A stretch of DNA of 64,000 nt, taken from sequence record PZ738962.1; one strand, written 5' to 3'. Positions 1,409 through 14,611 of the stretch are shown here, piece after piece (positions within the stretch are counted from its first letter, which is position 1; every line of letters starts with the position of its first letter). Source of the DNA: a phage. The notes under the pieces were generated by a model, which was given only the letters and a program-made list of their open reading frames with translations, did not search any database and was not told the origin of the DNA. The position numbers and the translations under genes are program-made.

Positions 1409-4400
1409 ATGGCAGATTTTTCTCAACATTTCAAGGCCACATTTGGCTTTGACGCTGGTAATGAAAAGGTCGTCAATGTAGCATTGGCTGATAAGAATGT
1501 CAACACCGATGCGGTCAACGTTGAATTTTTCAATTACCATAATGGTATTACTCAGTATGACACAACTCGCGGTTATGATCAATACGGAACTACAATCTAT
1601 CAAAACCGTCCGTATTATGCAAAAGAAGATATCACAAAGCCAGCAGGTGATTTTGACCCGACTAAATGGCAAGCACTGCGCACGGACCCACGTTGGGATT
1701 ATATTGCAGCAACTTCCGGTGATACTCCTTTACAGTCTGGTGATTATATCGCAGCAGATGGTCAATTTGCAAACTTGACTTTCTCTATGCCAACTAAACC
1801 AGCAGAGGGAGACACTATAACAGTAAAAGATATCGGTGGCAAGTGTGGTGTTAACGAATTATCGTTCTTGAGTACAGGACATGAGTTTTACCATAACGGT
1901 AATGTGTACAACCGAAAATGGTATTGCACTACCCCGTATGCAATGAACTATTTCATCTTTGTTCGTAATCGTTGGCATGTTTATCAGACAGGAACAGAGC
2001 CACGCGGTGTGTACGCACAGCCAGCGATTGATGCTATTCAAATGCAGAATGGTGATCAGGTATTTCGTCGTAGTTCGTTGGGTAATATTACCTTAGTGCT
2101 TCCTAAGTTTGCCAACAATGGCGACATGATCCAGACTACAGACCTTGACGGATTAACCGCAACCAACCACGTTACGGTTAAAGTTCATGAGCACGCAGAA
2201 GAACAATCAATTGGCACGTCCGGTCTAAAAGAGATTATCGGTAAGCGTAGCGGTCATGGTGTATTCATCTTTGACAAGACGGAAAACTTATGGCGTTTGT
2301 GGGATGGTGATCAGTCTGTTCGTCTTAAACCGATCATCAATGACACTCGCTTGCAACCTAATAGTTATGTTGCTGTATTTGGTGGTCGTGATGTTACTCT
2401 GACGCTGCCGACCAATGTCGAGCCGGGTGATCGTATTCAAGTTTCTATGCAGTATATGAACGGAAACCAGAATTGCCGTATTATCACCGCCACAGAGGAT
2501 ACAAAAATCCTTATGCAGAAAAACATGGTTCAGTTTCCTAAGCGTAGCGAGTACCCATTCAATGGGACCGATACATGGACGGGAGTATCTGAATTGTCTT
2601 TCAACGCTGCAAATGATTATGTACCTTATCTGGAGTTCTCTTATTCAGAAGGTGATGATGGTAAGAAATACTGGTTGGTGGCACATGCTCACCCGATTGT
2701 AGAACGAGTAGATCCGACTCGTAAAGATCGTGTTGGTGTAATTGCACTGGCTACCCAAACTGAAACGAATAAAAACCATGAAGAGAATCCTAGCGACGAA
2801 GTTGCAGTAACACCAAAAATGCTGGCTAATAAAACCGCCAACGAAACTCGACGCGGTATTGCTCGCATTGCGACTCAAGCGGAAACGCATCAAGATACTG
2901 GTTCCAACTTCCTGGATGATGTTATCGTTACGCCTAAAAAGTTAAATGACTGTGTTGCTACCGAAGCCCGTCGTGGTGTGATGGAAATTGCAACCCAGCA
3001 CGAAACCAATGAAGGTTTAGACGATACCCGCGCTATTACTCCTAAGAAATTAGAAGAACGTCGCGCTTCCGAAGATCTCGCTGGTATTGCTGAAATTGTT
3101 CAGGCTGGCGGCAGTGCTGCCGCTCGACGTGGCGAAGCTGGTACAGGGATCTATAACATCAATGACCATGCTAAAATTGTTACGCCAAAAAACATCAACG
3201 AAGTCAAGGCGACCGAAACTTCCCGTGGTGTTGGCTATCTGGCAACTGACGCGGAAGTGCAAGGGGCTACAGAATCAACCCCGCAAGATGCTTTACTCAT
3301 CACGACTCGCACGCTAACGAAACGTACTGCTACCGAATCGCGCACTGGTATCGCTGAAATTGCAACTCAGGAAGAAACAAACTTAGGTCAAAGTGATAAC
3401 CATATCATCACGCCTAAAAAGCTGCATACTCGCCGCGCAACGGAAACTTTACATGGTTTAGCAGAAATTGCAACTCAGCCGGAATTTGACGAAGGTCTTG
3501 ATGATGCTCGCATTTCTACCCCATTGAAGATTAAAACCTTCTTTGAGAATGCACAGCGTTTGAAAGTAGATCCAACTCAGGGTCTTAACCTTACTGGTGA
3601 TTTGTGGCAAGGTATCATGATCAGCGGTCTGGATGCAACCGAAGACACAAAAGGTGTCGCTAAAGTTGCGACTACTCAGCTTACTGACGCTGGTCAAGAT
3701 GATACTACAATCATCACGCCTAAAAAGCTGCAAGGCAAAAAGGCCACCGAAGGTAAAGAAGGCATTATCCGAGTTGGTACTCAAGCCGAAACCGTGGCTG
3801 GTATTATGGACAATGTAGCAATTTCTCCGAAGAACTTCAAATATGTTGTTCAGACAGAGGATACATGGAAAGCAACCGAAGCGCGTCGTGGATTCTTGAA
3901 AGTTGCTACTCAGGAAAACTGTTTTGTTGGTGATAATCTGCAAGGTTCTACTCAAGAACTAGGAAACTACCAGCATGACGGAATTGCTGTTACCCCTAAA
4001 GGATTAAACTACGCACTTGCTAATTTCTTACCTAAGATGGCAACCGCTCAGAATAGTTTGAAATTGGGTAACGTAGAGGCCGCTAAATGGGCGCGTAGAG
4101 ACATTGACCAGACCATAGAGAGCAATTACACGTTTAATAAAAACGTTAACGTGAAGGGCGATTTAGAGTGCTTAAAATCAGGTTCCTTTGAAACTCTGTA
4201 TGTGACTAAGAACTCTACTGATGATCCGAGTAATGGTCATCTGGTGTTGGGTGAGCGTGGAGTTGACGGTCACACCGGAATTACTCTGCATGGCACAACC
4301 GCATCGGAAGGCATGAAAAACTCCTGGTCTATTATCGTTGGTGGTACTGGAACGGCGCAAGCAGTTAATAGTGGCGCTATCGCTTTCGGTCAAATCAATG

Positions 4401-5184: not shown

Positions 5185-6324
5185 ATGACACAAGATATAG
5201 AATTACGCAATACTGGAATTAGGTTTGCGCATTTCGACGAAGACTCTGCGACATTTACCAGCATTTCAGAAAATAACTCTGTGATGTATAAGCTGGAAGT
5301 GCGCGGATCTAATGCGGATTCTACCAAACCAGCAAGAATTAGATTTAATGGAGTGGAGATCGTTGGCACTGGCTATGAAAATGGCCTAAATTTTAAAGTT
5401 CTTACTCCAACTGGACAACTACACGAAGAAAAGGTATTCTATGGTCGCGGTGCTGTTTTGGCAATGCGTGATTATCTTTCTTTGCTGAAAGGTGACTATA
5501 TCATTGCGATGGCAACGCACGGAGAATTGTTTGCAGATCCGATCAGTGATGGTGTATTCTCTAAGCTGGGATCTGTATCATTCCCGAATCACATTTTGCT
5601 ACAGCAAATGCCTCGTGTATCATATGCAGCAATTTATTCTACTAAAATGGGTAAAATTGTGTGCGAAGGGATGCAAGCAACTCACGGGGAAGGACAAGAT
5701 TCATCTATACAAATTGAGAAAGTCTATGATACTATAGATGATCTTGCTATAACAGGAACACCACAACGATTTTTAGATTATCCGGTTGAGTATGTTAGCG
5801 AAGATGCCGAACATTTCGAGCTAATACAATGGCCTCATGATGAGACCAGCGCCCCACTTGAGGATTTTAACATAAAGGCAGGTGACAAACTATCAATATC
5901 CTTTGAATTGTTCCGTGATAGTGCCGCAGCCGCAGCCAACGTAACAGCGCGTTTCTATCACAACTACTTCACCGATGGACAATATCAAACTGGTGTTCGG
6001 TACAATGCCAGCAAAAAAGACCAATGGGAAAAGTTTGAAGCAGTCTATACAGTACCGGAAGGAGTTGATAGTGTAGTAACTGGTTGTATCAGATATCCAA
6101 CCAACTCCAATGAAGGTATTGTTAAAATTAGAAACATACTAATAACGCCGATCAGTGGAGTCGTCAAAACTACTGGTCCTACTTCATTTGGTGTTAATGG
6201 TGTTAGAACAACTCATATTCAGGATAACGGTGATTTTACTAACCCTGTAATGAGTCTTCTTAAGCTGCCTAGAGATAATAAACACATCACATCCAACAAC
6301 TTTAAAGAGTTCGATGTTGATTAA
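5185..6324 (+). CDS. 35: long tail fibre hinge connector gp35
   Basis: 379 aa; similarity to T4 gp35 as recalled (VSYAAxY, FGVNGxR near C-terminus); synteny 34-35-36-37. Confidence 0.85.
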   Translation: MTQDIELRNTGIRFAHFDEDSATFTSISENNSVMYKLEVRGSNADSTKPARIRFNGVEIVGTGYENGLNFKVLTPTGQLHEEKVFYGRGAVLAMRDYLSLLKGDYIIAMATHGELFADPISDGVFSKLGSVSFPNHILLQQMPRVSYAAIYSTKMGKIVCEGMQATHGEGQDSSIQIEKVYDTIDDLAITGTPQRFLDYPVEYVSEDAEHFELIQWPHDETSAPLEDFNIKAGDKLSISFELFRDSAAAAANVTARFYHNYFTDGQYQTGVRYNASKKDQWEKFEAVYTVPEGVDSVVTGCIRYPTNSNEGIVKIRNILITPISGVVKTTGPTSFGVNGVRTTHIQDNGDFTNPVMSLLKLPRDNKHITSNNFKEFDVD

Positions 6325-6484: not shown

Positions 6485-6492
6485 TATAAATA
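6485..6492 (+). promoter_or_regulatory. T4-type late promoter TATAAATA upstream of gene 36
   Basis: exact TATAAATA 34 nt before the gene 36 ATG. Confidence 0.6.
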
Positions 6493-8086: not shown

Positions 8087-11029
8087 ATGGCAGATTTAAG
8101 CAGAATCCAATTTAAACGCACTAGCACTAAAGGTCGTAAACCGGATGCTAGTACGATGAATCCGGGGGAATTGGCAATCAACCTTGCGGATCAATATCTT
8201 CTTACTAAAAATGATTCCGGTACTATTATCAATTTAAGTTGTCCTCCGGTTTATGACCGCGATGTTACAATGGCGGGTAAGGTTAAAGGTAATAATTATA
8301 TCTTAAGTAAAACCGCTAACTATCTGGAAGATCAGACAGCGAGAGATCTTAACTACTTTGGTGCTTTCCGTACCAATGGTCTTGATGGTCTTCTCGAACT
8401 CACGCTAAACGTTCCTCACTCTTCCGGTGTCCAACATGGTCGAGGATTTACTTTCCAGTATGGACATACTGGATCACGAGTAGAAACCTATGGCTATAAT
8501 AGAGAAGGTCAAAAAGCATTTAGCTATAAAATGTATCACGAAGGTGATAAACCAACTCCAGGAGAATTGAACGTCTATAGCAAACAAGAAGTTGACCGTA
8601 TGTTTGTTAAGAACGTTAAACTTGCTACATCTCCTAGTGATATCGTTGAAGGCTATTTTAAATTAGCAACTGCAATGATTCCACAAAACGGTCTTAGCGT
8701 ATTTTTCCGTATTCATGGTGGTAACGGATATAACGTTACTGCATACGATCAAGTTGATATTGTAGAAATTGTTATTCGCAGTGGAAATGGTCGCCCTAAA
8801 GGTGTTAACGTTATTGCATATCGCCGAAATACAAACAAATCATTTGATGTTTTGGCTGTTAATACTTCTGGTGATAACTATGATATCTATGTGAAATATC
8901 AGCGTTACACTGATAACGTTATTGTTGAATTTGGTAAAAGTGTTGGTGTTAATCTGGTAGTTCATGACGTTCCAGATTTTGTTGCTGAACGTCCTGCTGG
9001 TGATAATGTTATTGGCGGTCGTGCTGTAACTCTTTTCAACACCGAAAACAAACGAGGTGTGTTGAGTTTTGACGATAACACACAAAATAGTTATGATATT
9101 GTTCACTTGAGTAATGATAGGGGTACTGGACGAAAATATATTCGTAAATTCCGTAGCAACTATAATGAAATGATTTGGCATGAGACGGTTCAAGGTTCTA
9201 CTTATCGACTCGCCACGGGTAGTACAGATGCTCAGGAGATTCTAACCGTTGAATCTAGTAGCTCTATTTCTGGGACTCATAAAGGTAATATTCTTTCTGG
9301 TCGAATGATGTTGGGTGGCGGTAGTAATGTTATTACCTTGCGGCGTCCTGCTGGTCAATCCAACCATATTGCGTTTCAAGATAATCGTACTGGAGCTATT
9401 ACCCGTCAAGGGTGGATCGGTTATGGTAATGCTGATACTAACGTTTTTGAATGGTATAGTGATGTAGGTGGTAGTTCTATTCGTCACCACATCGACGGAC
9501 AGATCGAACTTGCAACCGGTAACACAAAACGCGTTTATACTAACGCTCAATTCATCTCAATGAATAGCGACGCCTACCGTATGATCTACGGTAATTATGG
9601 TGCATTCTGGCGTAATGATGGTGGTAAAGTTTATCTTCTTTCTACTGCCGAAAATGATACATTGGGCGGATGGAACGGCAACCGACCATTTATTTACGAT
9701 TTAACAACTGGTAAAGTTACTTTAGGTGGAGACGGTAACGAAGGCGCATTAGTTCTCGAAAGAGATAGCCGTGCGGCTAGATTTGCTGGCGACATTTACG
9801 TTGGCAAAGGGATGTTAACATTTGATGCCGGACGATTAAATTCTCGCGATTACTTCCGGTTTAACCATTGGGGCGATAGCAATAACGCGCGTGATAACAT
9901 TTTACAGCTTGACGATAGCATAGGTGCACACTTCACCACTGAACGTACTTTAGCAACTGGTGCAATTAAAACTAAATTCTTCGGTAATTTGGAATCTGCT
10001 GGTCAAATTAAATGGGGTAAAGGGACCGCCACATCTACGTTTACTCTACGTGTATGGGGTAGCGATAGCCGTAAACAAATATTTGAATGCGGCGATGAAA
10101 GCGGGTGGCATTGGTATACCCAACGCGCTGGCGGTCCAGATACTTCTGCAATTGAGTTTGCCATCAACGGTACTGTTCGGCCTCAAGCAATTCACACTGG
10201 CGGTAATATCACTATCAACGGTGCTGATATTGAGTTTCGTCGCACTGGCAATAAGCACATCTGGTTTAGAGATCCGAACGGTTTAGAATTGGGTCTGTTG
10301 TACTGCGATGATGCTGGTGTTATGCGTATGCGCGGTGAGAAACAAACCGAAGTCTGGAAATTCGGCGGTAAGATGATTCAACTTGAAACTGGTACTGTTT
10401 CCGGTGGAGGTAATGGCCTGATTCGTGGTTCTGTTGCTGGTGGTAGTTGGACTAGCTGGCGTGATCGTGCTTCCGGTTTACAGGTAGACTGTCAACAATC
10501 AACCGATTCCGCTCATAACGTATGGAAAGCAACCCATCAAGGTAAATATCATATAGCAGCAATGGGTGTACACGTTCCTAGCGGTACTATCGGAAATGCT
10601 ATGGTGCGTATGCACGTACACGATGCAACTTTTGACTGGGGTGCGAGCGGTGACTTCCAAGCAAGCCGTAATGGTAATTTTAACGATGTTTATATTCGTT
10701 CTGATGCTCGCCTTAAAATCAACAAGGAAGAGTATAAGGAGAATGCCACCGATAAAGTTAATCGCTTGACGGTATACACCTATGACAAGGTTAAATCTTT
10801 AACCGACCGTACTGTCATTGCTCATGAAGTTGGTATTATTGCTCAGGATCTTGAGAAAGAATTGCCGGAAGCAGTAACAACTTCTAAGGTCGGCGATCCT
10901 GATAAGCCAGAAGAGATCTTAACAATTTCTAACTCTGCTGTCAACGCTCTTTTAATTAAGGCGTTTCAGGAAATGAGCGAAGAATTGAAAGCCGTTAAAG
11001 CTGAACTAGCGGAACTTAAAAAGAATTAA
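8087..11029 (+). CDS. 37: long tail fibre distal subunit gp37 with C-terminal intramolecular chaperone domain
   Basis: 980 aa; N-terminus MADLSRIQFKR...GELAINL matches T4 gp37 pattern; C-terminus carries an SDARLK...GIIAQDL motif plus coiled coil. Confidence 0.85.
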   Translation: MADLSRIQFKRTSTKGRKPDASTMNPGELAINLADQYLLTKNDSGTIINLSCPPVYDRDVTMAGKVKGNNYILSKTANYLEDQTARDLNYFGAFRTNGLDGLLELTLNVPHSSGVQHGRGFTFQYGHTGSRVETYGYNREGQKAFSYKMYHEGDKPTPGELNVYSKQEVDRMFVKNVKLATSPSDIVEGYFKLATAMIPQNGLSVFFRIHGGNGYNVTAYDQVDIVEIVIRSGNGRPKGVNVIAYRRNTNKSFDVLAVNTSGDNYDIYVKYQRYTDNVIVEFGKSVGVNLVVHDVPDFVAERPAGDNVIGGRAVTLFNTENKRGVLSFDDNTQNSYDIVHLSNDRGTGRKYIRKFRSNYNEMIWHETVQGSTYRLATGSTDAQEILTVESSSSISGTHKGNILSGRMMLGGGSNVITLRRPAGQSNHIAFQDNRTGAITRQGWIGYGNADTNVFEWYSDVGGSSIRHHIDGQIELATGNTKRVYTNAQFISMNSDAYRMIYGNYGAFWRNDGGKVYLLSTAENDTLGGWNGNRPFIYDLTTGKVTLGGDGNEGALVLERDSRAARFAGDIYVGKGMLTFDAGRLNSRDYFRFNHWGDSNNARDNILQLDDSIGAHFTTERTLATGAIKTKFFGNLESAGQIKWGKGTATSTFTLRVWGSDSRKQIFECGDESGWHWYTQRAGGPDTSAIEFAINGTVRPQAIHTGGNITINGADIEFRRTGNKHIWFRDPNGLELGLLYCDDAGVMRMRGEKQTEVWKFGGKMIQLETGTVSGGGNGLIRGSVAGGSWTSWRDRASGLQVDCQQSTDSAHNVWKATHQGKYHIAAMGVHVPSGTIGNAMVRMHVHDATFDWGASGDFQASRNGNFNDVYIRSDARLKINKEEYKENATDKVNRLTVYTYDKVKSLTDRTVIAHEVGIIAQDLEKELPEAVTTSKVGDPDKPEEILTISNSAVNALLIKAFQEMSEELKAVKAELAELKKN
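10700..11026 (+). other. peptidase S74-like intramolecular chaperone (auto-cleaving) domain at gp37 C-terminus
   Basis: SDARLKINKEEY...VYTYDK...GIIAQDLEKELPEAV...coiled coil; matches the conserved SDxRxK / GxIAQ signature of endosialidase and T5 pb1 C-terminal chaperone domains. Confidence 0.65.
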
Positions 11030-11071
11030 GGAAAAATCCCAGGGAAGGGAAACTATTAAGGAGAAACGGCT

Positions 11072-11311
11072 ATGGTCTATAATATCGTCATTGGTGCTTT
11101 GTCTAGTTTCGGAATGAAACTATTATCAAAGTTAATTAGTGAAAAGATGCTCACTAAAATTTTCTTCTATTGCGCTCGTCGTCTTGCGGCCTATACCAAT
11201 ACGCCAATTGATGATCGTTTTGTGGAAGAACTTTATAAGGAGTTTAATAAAGATCAATCAGAAGATAGCAACGAGAAAGATAAACCTAGTGATAGTCAAG
11301 TACCTAAATAA
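11072..11311 (+). CDS. hypothetical small membrane protein (79 aa) between 37 and t
   Basis: ATG with AAGGAGAAACGGCT upstream; hydrophobic N-terminal helix then charged tail; overlapping alternative frame 11139..11327 judged less likely. Confidence 0.45.
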   Translation: MVYNIVIGALSSFGMKLLSKLISEKMLTKIFFYCARRLAAYTNTPIDDRFVEELYKEFNKDQSEDSNEKDKPSDSQVPK

Positions 11312-11344: not shown

Positions 11345-12001
11345 ATGCAAGTTTCTGAAAAAGAGAAAGACTTTGCTATCTCAAATGTCCTGCGCGCTAT
11401 TTTCACAACTAAAAGCACGGAGTTGCTCGTACTTCGTGTTTTTGCTGCCGTCGTGTTGTCCATATTAGCATTTGTCGTTTATAGTAAAAACGAGTTATTT
11501 GCGCTTTATAAAGAGACTCGTTATGAGACTTATGCTCACGTTCTCCAGGTAGAGAAAGACCGCAATTTTGATAATGCAGCACAGGAGCAGTTACAGATAG
11601 TTCATGTGTCGGCTGATGCCGATTTTTCTGCTGTTTTTAGCTTTCGTCCGAAAAACCTAAACTATTTTGTTGATTTGGTGGCATATGAAGGAAAGCTACC
11701 GCATACGATCGATGAAAAGAATTTAGGCGGGTTCCCTATCAATAAAACGAGTGAAGAATATCGTAGGCATCTTTTAGGTAAATCATATTTTACCGATAAA
11801 GATTTCCAGTATATTCCATCGAGGGAGAAAAAATTAGAGAATATCGATATAGGGTTTATGTATTCTTGTCCTATATTCAATCTCGATAATGTCTATTCTG
11901 GTAGTATCGCCATTGCATGGAAGAATAAACCGGATATTGACATTGAGAATTTGGATACTCTTTGCAATCAATCTGCCAGAATCCTCGGAAGGATTAGATA
12001 A
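11345..12001 (+). CDS. t: holin (lysis inhibition-sensitive T holin)
   Basis: 218 aa; strong similarity to T4 T as recalled (LEQLQIVHVSADADFSAVFSFRPKNLNYFVDLVAYEGKLP, FMYSCPIFNLDNVYSG, ARILGR). Confidence 0.9.
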   Translation: MQVSEKEKDFAISNVLRAIFTTKSTELLVLRVFAAVVLSILAFVVYSKNELFALYKETRYETYAHVLQVEKDRNFDNAAQEQLQIVHVSADADFSAVFSFRPKNLNYFVDLVAYEGKLPHTIDEKNLGGFPINKTSEEYRRHLLGKSYFTDKDFQYIPSREKKLENIDIGFMYSCPIFNLDNVYSGSIAIAWKNKPDIDIENLDTLCNQSARILGRIR

Positions 12002-12006
12002 CTTAA

Positions 12007-12040
12007 AGGGGAAGCCTTTCGGCCTCCCCTTCTTTTTTAT
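12007..12040. terminator. terminator hairpin at the convergence point of plus-strand late module and minus-strand early genes
   Basis: AGGGGAAGCC-TTTC-GGCCTCCCCT followed by TCTTTTTTA on plus strand; minus-strand gene 12037..12285 ends adjacent. Confidence 0.55.
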
Positions 12041-12285
12041 TGGCGCATAGAAGCCCCTGAATCACATTTTGACGCTGTATGATGAAAACAGGTAGCGTAC
12101 CAGTCATCGGCTTGTTTGTCTTCGTCAGAAAACGCGTAATTTCGTTGTATGCCGTTTTCTACTTTGACCAGCGCAATAGCTGTTTCTGGAAGATCAATCA
12201 ATCGGACAAAATCGCCATCTTCCCATTCTACACGAGCAATATCATAACCCATCTCAAAGTATACAATCGCTTGTTCTAATTTCAT
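12037..12285 (-). CDS. hypothetical small protein, possible DUF2829 (Tad2-like) fold
   Basis: 82 aa; pattern M-x-L-E-Q-A-I...G-x-x-I-A-R-x-x-W...DDW resembles DUF2829 N- and C-terminal motifs from memory; start overlaps upstream stop (ATGA). Confidence 0.5.
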   Translation of the reverse strand: MKLEQAIVYFEMGYDIARVEWEDGDFVRLIDLPETAIALVKVENGIQRNYAFSDEDKQADDWYATCFHHTASKCDSGASMRQ

Positions 12286-13852: not shown

Positions 13853-14611
13853 TTACTTGCAAACGTATTGATCTACATCAATTGCTCCACCGAATGTAGG
13901 ATGACGTTTTTCAAATCGAATAGTTCCGTCGTTTGGTTCGAAAACGGAGTATTCATATAGATCTTTCTTGCCAACATTCTTATAAAACCCGCCTTTAGTC
14001 ATAACGGTTTCTTGTACGTTTGCTTTGTGTACGTTGTATTCATCAATGTATACAAAATCAACCATCTTCCCATTTTTAATGGTTACTTTAAGATCCCCTG
14101 GCTGGTTTCCATATTTTGCATACAGTGGAGCCTCTTTAATTTTTGTGGAAATTCCATCTTTCATACTCCACTCATAACGAACGGTGCATTGATAGGTCAA
14201 AGTTTCGACCTTCGGTTCTTCTACCACTTTTGCCTCCTGTTTCGGTTGTTCTTCTTCAACCTTCGCAGAAGTCTCTGAATCGCTTTCTGACGCGGTTTCT
14301 TCTTTAGGTAATACATTCATCAAGTTTTGGATTTGAGCGTTATATACAGCCTCCAGTGGCTGAATCTGCCCGATATTGATCATTGTATCACGAACAGTTT
14401 TATTCCAGTTTCGTTGCTCTTGTTTCAGAGACGGATCAATCTTAACAGCCTTAACATATACTTCATGAAGTTTAGAGTCCAGTGCGGAGATAGACTCATT
14501 AGCACAAATAAACTTCTCTGATTTGGTAGTAGCTTTAGCGCAATCAAAGGACGCAGCGTTAGCACCGAAAGCAGTAGCAGAAAGAACGATAGCAGCGATA
14601 ATGTTTTTCAT
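13853..14611 (-). CDS. secreted protein with N-terminal DUF1311 (LprI-like) domain
   Basis: 252 aa; signal peptide MKNIIAAIVLSATAFGANA; FDCAKATTKSEKFICANESISALDSKLHEVY...QRNW matches DUF1311 Cys pattern; acidic linker; C-terminal domain with two Cys. Confidence 0.6.
   Translation of the reverse strand: MKNIIAAIVLSATAFGANAASFDCAKATTKSEKFICANESISALDSKLHEVYVKAVKIDPSLKQEQRNWNKTVRDTMINIGQIQPLEAVYNAQIQNLMNVLPKEETASESDSETSAKVEEEQPKQEAKVVEEPKVETLTYQCTVRYEWSMKDGISTKIKEAPLYAKYGNQPGDLKVTIKNGKMVDFVYIDEYNVHKANVQETVMTKGGFYKNVGKKDLYEYSVFEPNDGTIRFEKRHPTFGGAIDVDQYVCK

Follow-up and report, generated by a model that had tools for sequence, protein, structure and literature searches.

By sequence comparison, the protein encoded by a small open reading frame at 11072-11311 (+) of phage record PZ738962.1 (79 aa; hereafter ORF79) falls within the PM2 P18 (gp l) family. 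Its probable role is that of a P18-type accessory lysis protein, which, in the scheme proposed here, would act after the holin T at the outer membrane. This poses a puzzle, as phages equipped with a holin, an antiholin, an endolysin and spanins keep a gene of this type beside the holin. Below, the window is the whole 64,000-nucleotide stretch of phage DNA that was analysed.

ORF79 lies, as the initial annotation stated, wedged between the distal long-tail-fibre subunit gene 37 (8087..11029, +; phrog_1699, 2.3e-191) and the holin gene t (11345..12001, +; PF11031, 4.9e-61), with both neighbours matched by profiles. The holin gene starts 33 nt downstream of ORF79, and its 218-aa product has a single transmembrane domain (TMD) at approximately aa 27-45 and is 48% identical to T4 T. 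The good ribosome-binding site described earlier is also borne out: a Shine-Dalgarno sequence, AAGGAG, was read directly at 11058..11063 (+), 8 nt 5' of the ATG start codon, and is conserved in RB49. The source phage is a Krischvirus, and the 1.6 kb surrounding ORF79 are 94-97% identical to RB49, JSE, Phi1 and about 60 relatives.

The RB49 ortholog, RB49ORF251w (3573-3812 of the RB49 locus, L001), has a GTG start codon in place of the window's ATG, and the RB49 GenBank record holds two overlapping CDS calls, RB49ORF251w itself (79 aa) and 'Dc5' (65 aa, from Met15). Since N-terminal residues are conserved across genera, the long 79-aa form is supported. Comparison with RB49 gives a pN/pS of 0.24. 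Full-length matches at 90-99% identity were found by tblastn in 59 phage records of Krischvirus, and the family was found in 394 phage records in all (these 59 and about 335 others). ORF79 is thus a real gene, conserved and under purifying selection. A chance, non-expressed ORF could be suspected from its small size and from the two conflicting start calls in RB49, yet the probability of this is negligible in view of the strong Shine-Dalgarno sequence, the pN/pS value and the retention of invariant core residues across the Krischvirus and other phage records.

Genes 36, 37, ORF79 and t look like one late transcription unit. Between 6485 and t, the + strand holds a single exact match to the T4-type late promoter consensus, TATAAATA, at 6485..6492 upstream of gene 36. 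As the only such match up to t, and hence the closest upstream of it, this is the likely source of a 36-37-ORF79-t late transcript, a call made from position only, the pattern showing no enrichment over chance window-wide. Neither a late-promoter consensus nor a terminator was found in the interval between ORF79 and t. Just 3' of t, a hairpin followed by a U-run (12006..12043, +; -16.8 kcal/mol, z = -2.0) resembles an intrinsic terminator. The genes beyond it are convergent with t, and the late operon closes right after t.

Two minus-strand genes in this part of the window can be recorded in their own right. The ORF convergent with t (12037-12285, -; 82 aa) is the ortholog of RB49ORF253c and matches a Pfam Tad2-like domain (Thoeris anti-defence 2-like) at 27.9 bits against a curated cutoff of 25, making it a candidate anti-Thoeris sponge. 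Further along, a 252-aa protein (13853-14611, -), the ortholog of RB49ORF260c, has an N-terminal signal-peptide-like sequence and matches Pfam LprI (lysozyme inhibitor) at 26 bits against a cutoff of 22. It lies near the lysis genes and may bear on lysis control.

Several comparisons place ORF79 in the P18 family. In a PHROGs scan, it matched phrog_402 at 5.5e-20 over 54 of the 58 profile positions, as well as phrog_22224, and PM2 gp l falls in the same two PHROGs (phrog_402 at 8.2e-14). Orthologs that are 59-94% identical to ORF79 all carry the precomputed Pfam domain PF26925 (Phage_PM2_Gpl), so that this domain is assigned to ORF79 through its orthologs and not by direct scoring. Local scans of ORF79 with NCBIfam and with a Pfam-A copy lacking PF26925 returned nothing significant. 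Two family profiles built from tailed-phage members only, A1 and A3, detected PM2 gp l over its residues 5-49, with scores of 32.3 and 26.9 bits, respectively, while pairwise blastp aligned ORF79 and gp l over 49 aa at 22% identity.

The core common to the two proteins reads KLL..E..I..(V/I)FF..A..LA..T.T..DD.(F/V)..L. Residues F31, F32 and D47 of ORF79 are invariant in the family, and E24, A35, T42, T44 and D48 nearly so. When the single sequence was searched with phmmer against 1.8 billion representatives, only seven small proteins were genuine matches. The huge repeat proteins topping that list (P0016, P0017, P0020 and P0023) were rejected as repeat or low-complexity artefacts. A scan of bacterial genomes with a sub-alignment gave only two partial Actinomycetota matches, which were taken as chance. 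No relative with a solved structure was found, a single ISY1 match at E = 0.004 being taken as spurious.

The initial annotation called the protein unassigned. This holds for GenBank, where the product names all read 'hypothetical protein', but not for Pfam PF26925, phrog_402 or the literature of 2007, all of which assign the family. Homologues of P18 were named in RB49, Felix O1, PaP3, P-SSM4, S-PM2 and P-SSM2 by Krupovic & Bamford 2007 (PMC1950889). The assignment of the RB49 gene has therefore been in print since 2007 and is also in Pfam; the homology is not new, and the finding is ordinary because the link between RB49 and P18 was published then. A search of full-text literature for 'PF26925' returned no match. 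In practical terms, around 60 Krischvirus records and several hundred more from Felix O1-like, Erwinia, Vibrio and Aeromonas phages that now read 'hypothetical protein' could be annotated as P18/gp l-like accessory lysis proteins.

What is known of the function of the family comes from PM2. Two papers citing the original PM2 work describe P17 (gp k) as the holin and P18 (gene XVIII) as required for outer-membrane disruption (PMC9502842, PMC6356626), and P5 has recently been proposed as the PM2 lysin (PMC9502842).

An AF2 model of ORF79, made from a 40-sequence alignment and of modest confidence (pLDDT 66.8), predicts three helices. Helix 1 (aa 2-20; 11072..11131, +) is weakly hydrophobic, rich in Gly, Ala and Ser, and holds Lys16 and Lys20. 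Helix 2 (aa 24-41; 11141..11194, +) is predicted to be basic and amphipathic and carries the conserved E24, F31, F32 and A35. The family signature T42-x-T44-P-x-D47-D48 (11195..11215, +) would form a turn or N-cap between helices 2 and 3, and its columns read S-x-N-T-x-D-N in PM2 gp l. Helix 3 (aa 45-65; 11204..11266, +) is acidic, as is the C-terminal tail (aa 66-79; 11267..11308, +), which is poorly conserved and variable among orthologs. This tail lies outside the predicted helices, looks disordered and is modelled with low confidence (pLDDT below 50 for residues 68-77).

The charged C-terminal tail reported earlier is therefore present, residues 46-79 carrying a net charge of -5. It forms one half of a charge dipole, residues 1-45 being net +5 and the whole protein net 0, and a dipole of about +3 / -3 is kept across the family. 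There is no lipobox and no signal peptide, and the sole cysteine, C34, lies within helix 2.

The 'one N-terminal transmembrane helix' of the initial annotation fared less well and is marginal. The best 19-residue Kyte-Doolittle mean of ORF79 is 1.45, compared with 2.86 for the TMD of holin T and 1.17 for RB49 RI, and its hydropathy is lower than that of T, P17 and phiKT gp29. The uninterrupted hydrophobic run is only ~15 residues long, with Lys16 (conserved across the family) and Lys20 inside the segment. On simple hydropathy scales, the segment is borderline, with a Hessa sum of +5.6 alongside the Kyte-Doolittle value of 1.45. The segment is also partly missing from PM2 gp l, which lacks the first ~8-10 of its residues. 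It can be likened to a weak SAR-like helix or to an amphipathic one that associates with membranes. Because of this extra hydrophobic extension, the topology and action of the tailed-phage members may differ from those of PM2 gp l. ORF79 does not qualify as a holin itself, given its hydropathy and the lack of a holin family match.

Genomic neighbourhoods link the family broadly to lysis. A lysis gene adjoins the homolog in at least seven lineages besides Krischvirus, and in at least six lineages the gene directly beside it encodes a small protein with one N-terminal TMD and a coiled coil. In PM2, for instance, gp l follows gp k, which encodes the P17 holin with its TMD and short coiled coil (L013 9780-9941). 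In Krischvirus and in a divergent T4-like contig with a 42%-identical homolog, the order is gp37 (with its S74 domain), homolog and T holin. In the Ounavirinae (Felix O1, Moogle, phiEa104 and a metagenomic relative), a fibre gene is followed by the homolog and then by a translationally coupled gene for a TMD and coiled-coil protein of 106-124 aa, at which the operon ends. This partner (one TMD plus coiled coil; phrog_4038) is named 'putative holin' in many records, including the CPT-tagged Moogle.

Other lineages vary the arrangement. T7-like contigs have the TMD and coiled-coil protein, the homolog and a gp18-type terS in that order, so that the pair lies just upstream of terS, the position of the holin gene 17.5 in T7. 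Viral metagenomic contigs L019-L021 and L023 have an M15 endolysin before the homolog and a TMD and coiled-coil protein after it, and Pseudomonas phage Bjorn has the homolog followed by such a protein. TMD and coiled-coil partners were located at L002 4187-4558, L006 4201-4536, L012 5203-5523, L017 3729-4001, L018 3642-3950, L019 4192-4521, L021 4177-4509 and L028 3170-3418. Across lineages these share a common architecture, with marginal sequence similarity that is too weak to infer homology. In contigs L011 and L022, the homolog follows the gene for a protein of ~1,100 aa, which has a lysozyme domain in L011 and was judged alike in L022 by size only.

Elsewhere, the homolog directly follows an endolysin gene: a GH108 endolysin in Vibrio podophages (e.g. 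Vibrio phage 1.039.O, L003 3480-4213) and a lysozyme in a Shewanella baltica prophage (L010 5553-6204). At these Vibrio and Shewanella loci, no adjoining TMD-containing (holin-like) ORF was found; either the holin lies elsewhere or the P18-like protein does more there. An exception to the lysis linkage is seen in the SU10-like phages A24 and LAh_6, where the homolog is flanked by a tail-needle and an adaptor gene and no lysis gene adjoins it, which speaks against a lysis role.

These neighbourhoods also bear on the suggestion that ORF79 is a tail-fibre accessory factor, that is, a chaperone or adhesin in the slot of gene 38. The initial annotation rightly placed T4 gene 38 in this slot, between 37 and t, and several myoviruses and podoviruses have a fibre or needle gene just ahead of the homolog. 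ORF79 and T4 gp38 even share an identical 7-mer, EELYKEF, at 11222-11242 of the window (aa 51-57) and at aa 117-123 of gp38 (L029 about 5998-6018). This match scores 21.9 bits by blastp, a value reached by none of 300 shuffles (maximum 21.2), with only 32/60 nucleotides identical at the DNA level. The 7-mer is, however, specific to Krischvirus and no feature of the family, and its identity with gp38 is probably a coincidence.

Nor does the rest of the evidence favour a fibre function. No gp38 family was matched in Pfam or PHROG, and T4 gp38 scored 0.0 bits with the family profile. ORF79 is unrelated in sequence and size both to this fibre assembly chaperone and to the T2-type gp38 adhesin. The gp37 of this phage has its own intramolecular chaperone, a C-terminal Peptidase_S74 domain (aa 872-931; PF13884, 1.4e-11), in addition to a Gp34_trimer-like domain. 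In RB49, a T2/RB69-type gp38-like adhesin gene (NC_005066 45367-46143, -; phrog_2056, 3.3e-98) is located in the early region, far from the fibre operon. Homologs are found in tailless PM2 and directly after endolysin genes with no adjoining fibre gene. The fibre neighbourhood can thus be regarded as incidental, since homologs, including that of PM2, usually adjoin a holin-like single-TMD protein or an endolysin, and it is explained by the tendency of holin and other lysis genes to close late structural operons, as in T4 and the T7-like contigs. A tail-fibre role is accordingly highly improbable.

Almost as improbable is that ORF79 encodes a superinfection-exclusion or receptor-masking membrane protein similar in kind to Cor, Llp or Imm. 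A small, partly hydrophobic product encoded directly after a receptor-binding fibre gene would suit such a function. Against it stand the lack of both lipobox and signal peptide, the late transcription unit (a poor time for exclusion functions), the lysis phenotype of the family and the absence of a PADLOC match for ORF79.

The initial annotation's other suggestion, a lysis regulator such as an antiholin, finds support in its broader part, the P18 family and the homologs beside holin-like proteins and endolysins pointing to a general link to lysis, but the antiholin is not supported. The PHROG scan of ORF79 gave no lysis-inhibition family, and T4 RIII gave no tblastn match at ORF79. RB49 has its own rI as a separate gene (phrog_1246 at 1.2e-25), and the characterised member of the family is reported to act on the outer membrane and not to inhibit a holin.

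How, then, might a P18-type protein contribute to lysis in a Krischvirus? As a late product, it would be made together with T, in the form of a predicted three-helix unit of ~65 residues with a basic, hydrophobic and amphipathic N-terminal half and an acidic helix 3 and tail. Before T triggers, the protein may be cytoplasmic or loosely bound to the inner membrane. Once the hole has formed and the E lysozyme has degraded the murein, it could reach the envelope and help to breach the outer membrane, in line with what is reported of P18 in PM2. There, it would work in parallel to, or as a back-up for, the PseT.3/PseT.2 spanins.

The distribution of spanins partly fits this outer-membrane role. 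Kongari 2018 lists PM2, PaP3, P-SSM2, P-SSM4 and S-PM2 as spanin-less, that is, PM2 and four of the six tailed phages for which P18 homologues were listed in 2007. Most of the phages first listed with a P18 homolog thus have no spanins, as expected of a protein that acts on the outer membrane. In the same survey, RB49, JSE and Phi1 belong to the T4 spanin family; the JH2 family includes Felix O1 and Moogle. In Krischvirus and Felix O1, the P18 homolog is therefore present in addition to spanins, and those of RB49, PseT.2 and PseT.3 (phrog_812 and phrog_739), are encoded away from ORF79. Because RB49-type and Felix O1-type phages own both spanins, a further outer-membrane disruptor is not obviously needed. 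Other points against the outer-membrane reading are charge, the ORF79 protein being net-neutral compared with the +7 of a cationic disruptin, the N-terminal extension that PM2 gp l does not have, and the Vibrio and Shewanella loci with no TMD holin next to the homolog.

The presence of spanins is one reason to consider that ORF79 acts at the holin level instead, as a cofactor or regulator. Here, the protein would be anchored in the inner membrane with its N-terminus out and its C-terminus in, and the unit of helices 2 and 3 would bind the cytoplasmic N-terminal domain of T, either promoting triggering or stabilising the inhibited state in the manner of T4 RIII. All basic residues of ORF79 follow the hydrophobic segment, so that the positive-inside rule predicts a cytoplasmic C-terminus, and in at least six lineages the immediate neighbour of the gene encodes a holin-type protein with one TMD. 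Also in favour of this reading, no RIII homolog turned up at the canonical gene 30-31 locus, nor did a tblastn search with T4 RIII reveal one in the approximately two thirds of a Krischvirus genome that it covered. In RB49 (NC_005066), this canonical rIII locus holds a 54-aa ORF of unknown function (126078-126242, -; phrog_15277).

A possible precedent for promoted triggering is Lcc6 (SO_4795) of the Shewanella phage LambdaSo, a 65-aa protein described as having a hydrophobic or TM segment at aa 5-22, a C-terminus in the cytoplasm and an indispensable part in lysis at the holin step (bioRxiv 10.1101/2024.01.23.576932). Its size and layout are akin to those of the ORF79 family, a likeness by description only. 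Lcc6 differs in being encoded far from the lysis cassette and in having a phenotype at the holin or depolarisation step. Weighing further against a holin cofactor, the papers cited above report an outer-membrane action for P18, the only family member characterised, with P17 as the holin. Moreover, PM2 gp l has no N-terminal extension, some homologs stand beside endolysins with no adjoining TMD protein, and ORF79 shows no similarity to the RI and RIII PHROGs. On balance, a cofactor of the holin is possible but rather unlikely.

A more general proposal, which we regard as about equally unlikely, is that P18-like proteins occur widely as a second partner of holins with one TMD and spread by horizontal transfer. 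In the spanin-bearing Krischvirus and Felix O1, they would then be cytoplasm-facing cofactors of T timing, Lcc6-like or RIII-like, and not redundant outer-membrane disruptors. If true, the 'outer-membrane' phenotype in PM2 would be one face of a general holin-coupled function. Krischvirus growing on E. coli K-12 offers a convenient system for probing a gene of this type.

Compared with known lysis proteins, the P18-type accessory lysis protein preferred here shares features with several systems. T4 RI and RIII are, like ORF79, small, and they act with holin T; the SAR N-terminus of RI is also weakly hydrophobic, to a similar degree. Nevertheless, neither is homologous to ORF79, and the functional domain of RI is periplasmic, whereas the charge distribution of ORF79 predicts a cytoplasmic C-terminus. 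If the analogy with P18 holds, ORF79 would share with two-component spanins (lambda Rz/Rz1 and T4 PseT.3/PseT.2) a part in the final step of outer-membrane disruption. It differs from them in having no periplasm-spanning coiled coil, no lipobox and no spanin PHROG match, and thus does not qualify as a spanin.

The 'disruptin' gp28 of phiKT is likewise a small, helical non-lipoprotein encoded in a lysis cassette. Its gene order, endolysin-28-holin, recalls that of the L019-L023 contigs, and its proposed action, breaching the outer membrane with no part that crosses the periplasm, resembles the role envisaged here for ORF79. There is no sequence similarity between the two (gp28 scores -2.1 bits with the family profile), and gp28 behaves as a cationic antimicrobial peptide would, with a net charge of +7, in contrast to the net 0 and +5/-5 dipole of ORF79. 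In addition, phiKT is spanin-less, unlike the phage that carries ORF79.

The closest comparison is with PM2 P18, even though several differences separate the two. P18 has 51 aa compared with the 79 of ORF79, which has ~8-10 extra hydrophobic residues at its N-terminus and an acidic tail of 14 aa, and T42 and D48 of ORF79 are S and N in the PM2 protein. The partner holin is of the T4 T type here and P17 in PM2, and the phage that carries ORF79 possesses an endolysin, RI and spanins, all of them absent from PM2. Across the whole core, however, the proteins are homologous. Both are small and helical, with a basic N-terminal and an acidic C-terminal half, and both are encoded at the end of a late operon beside a single-TMD holin.
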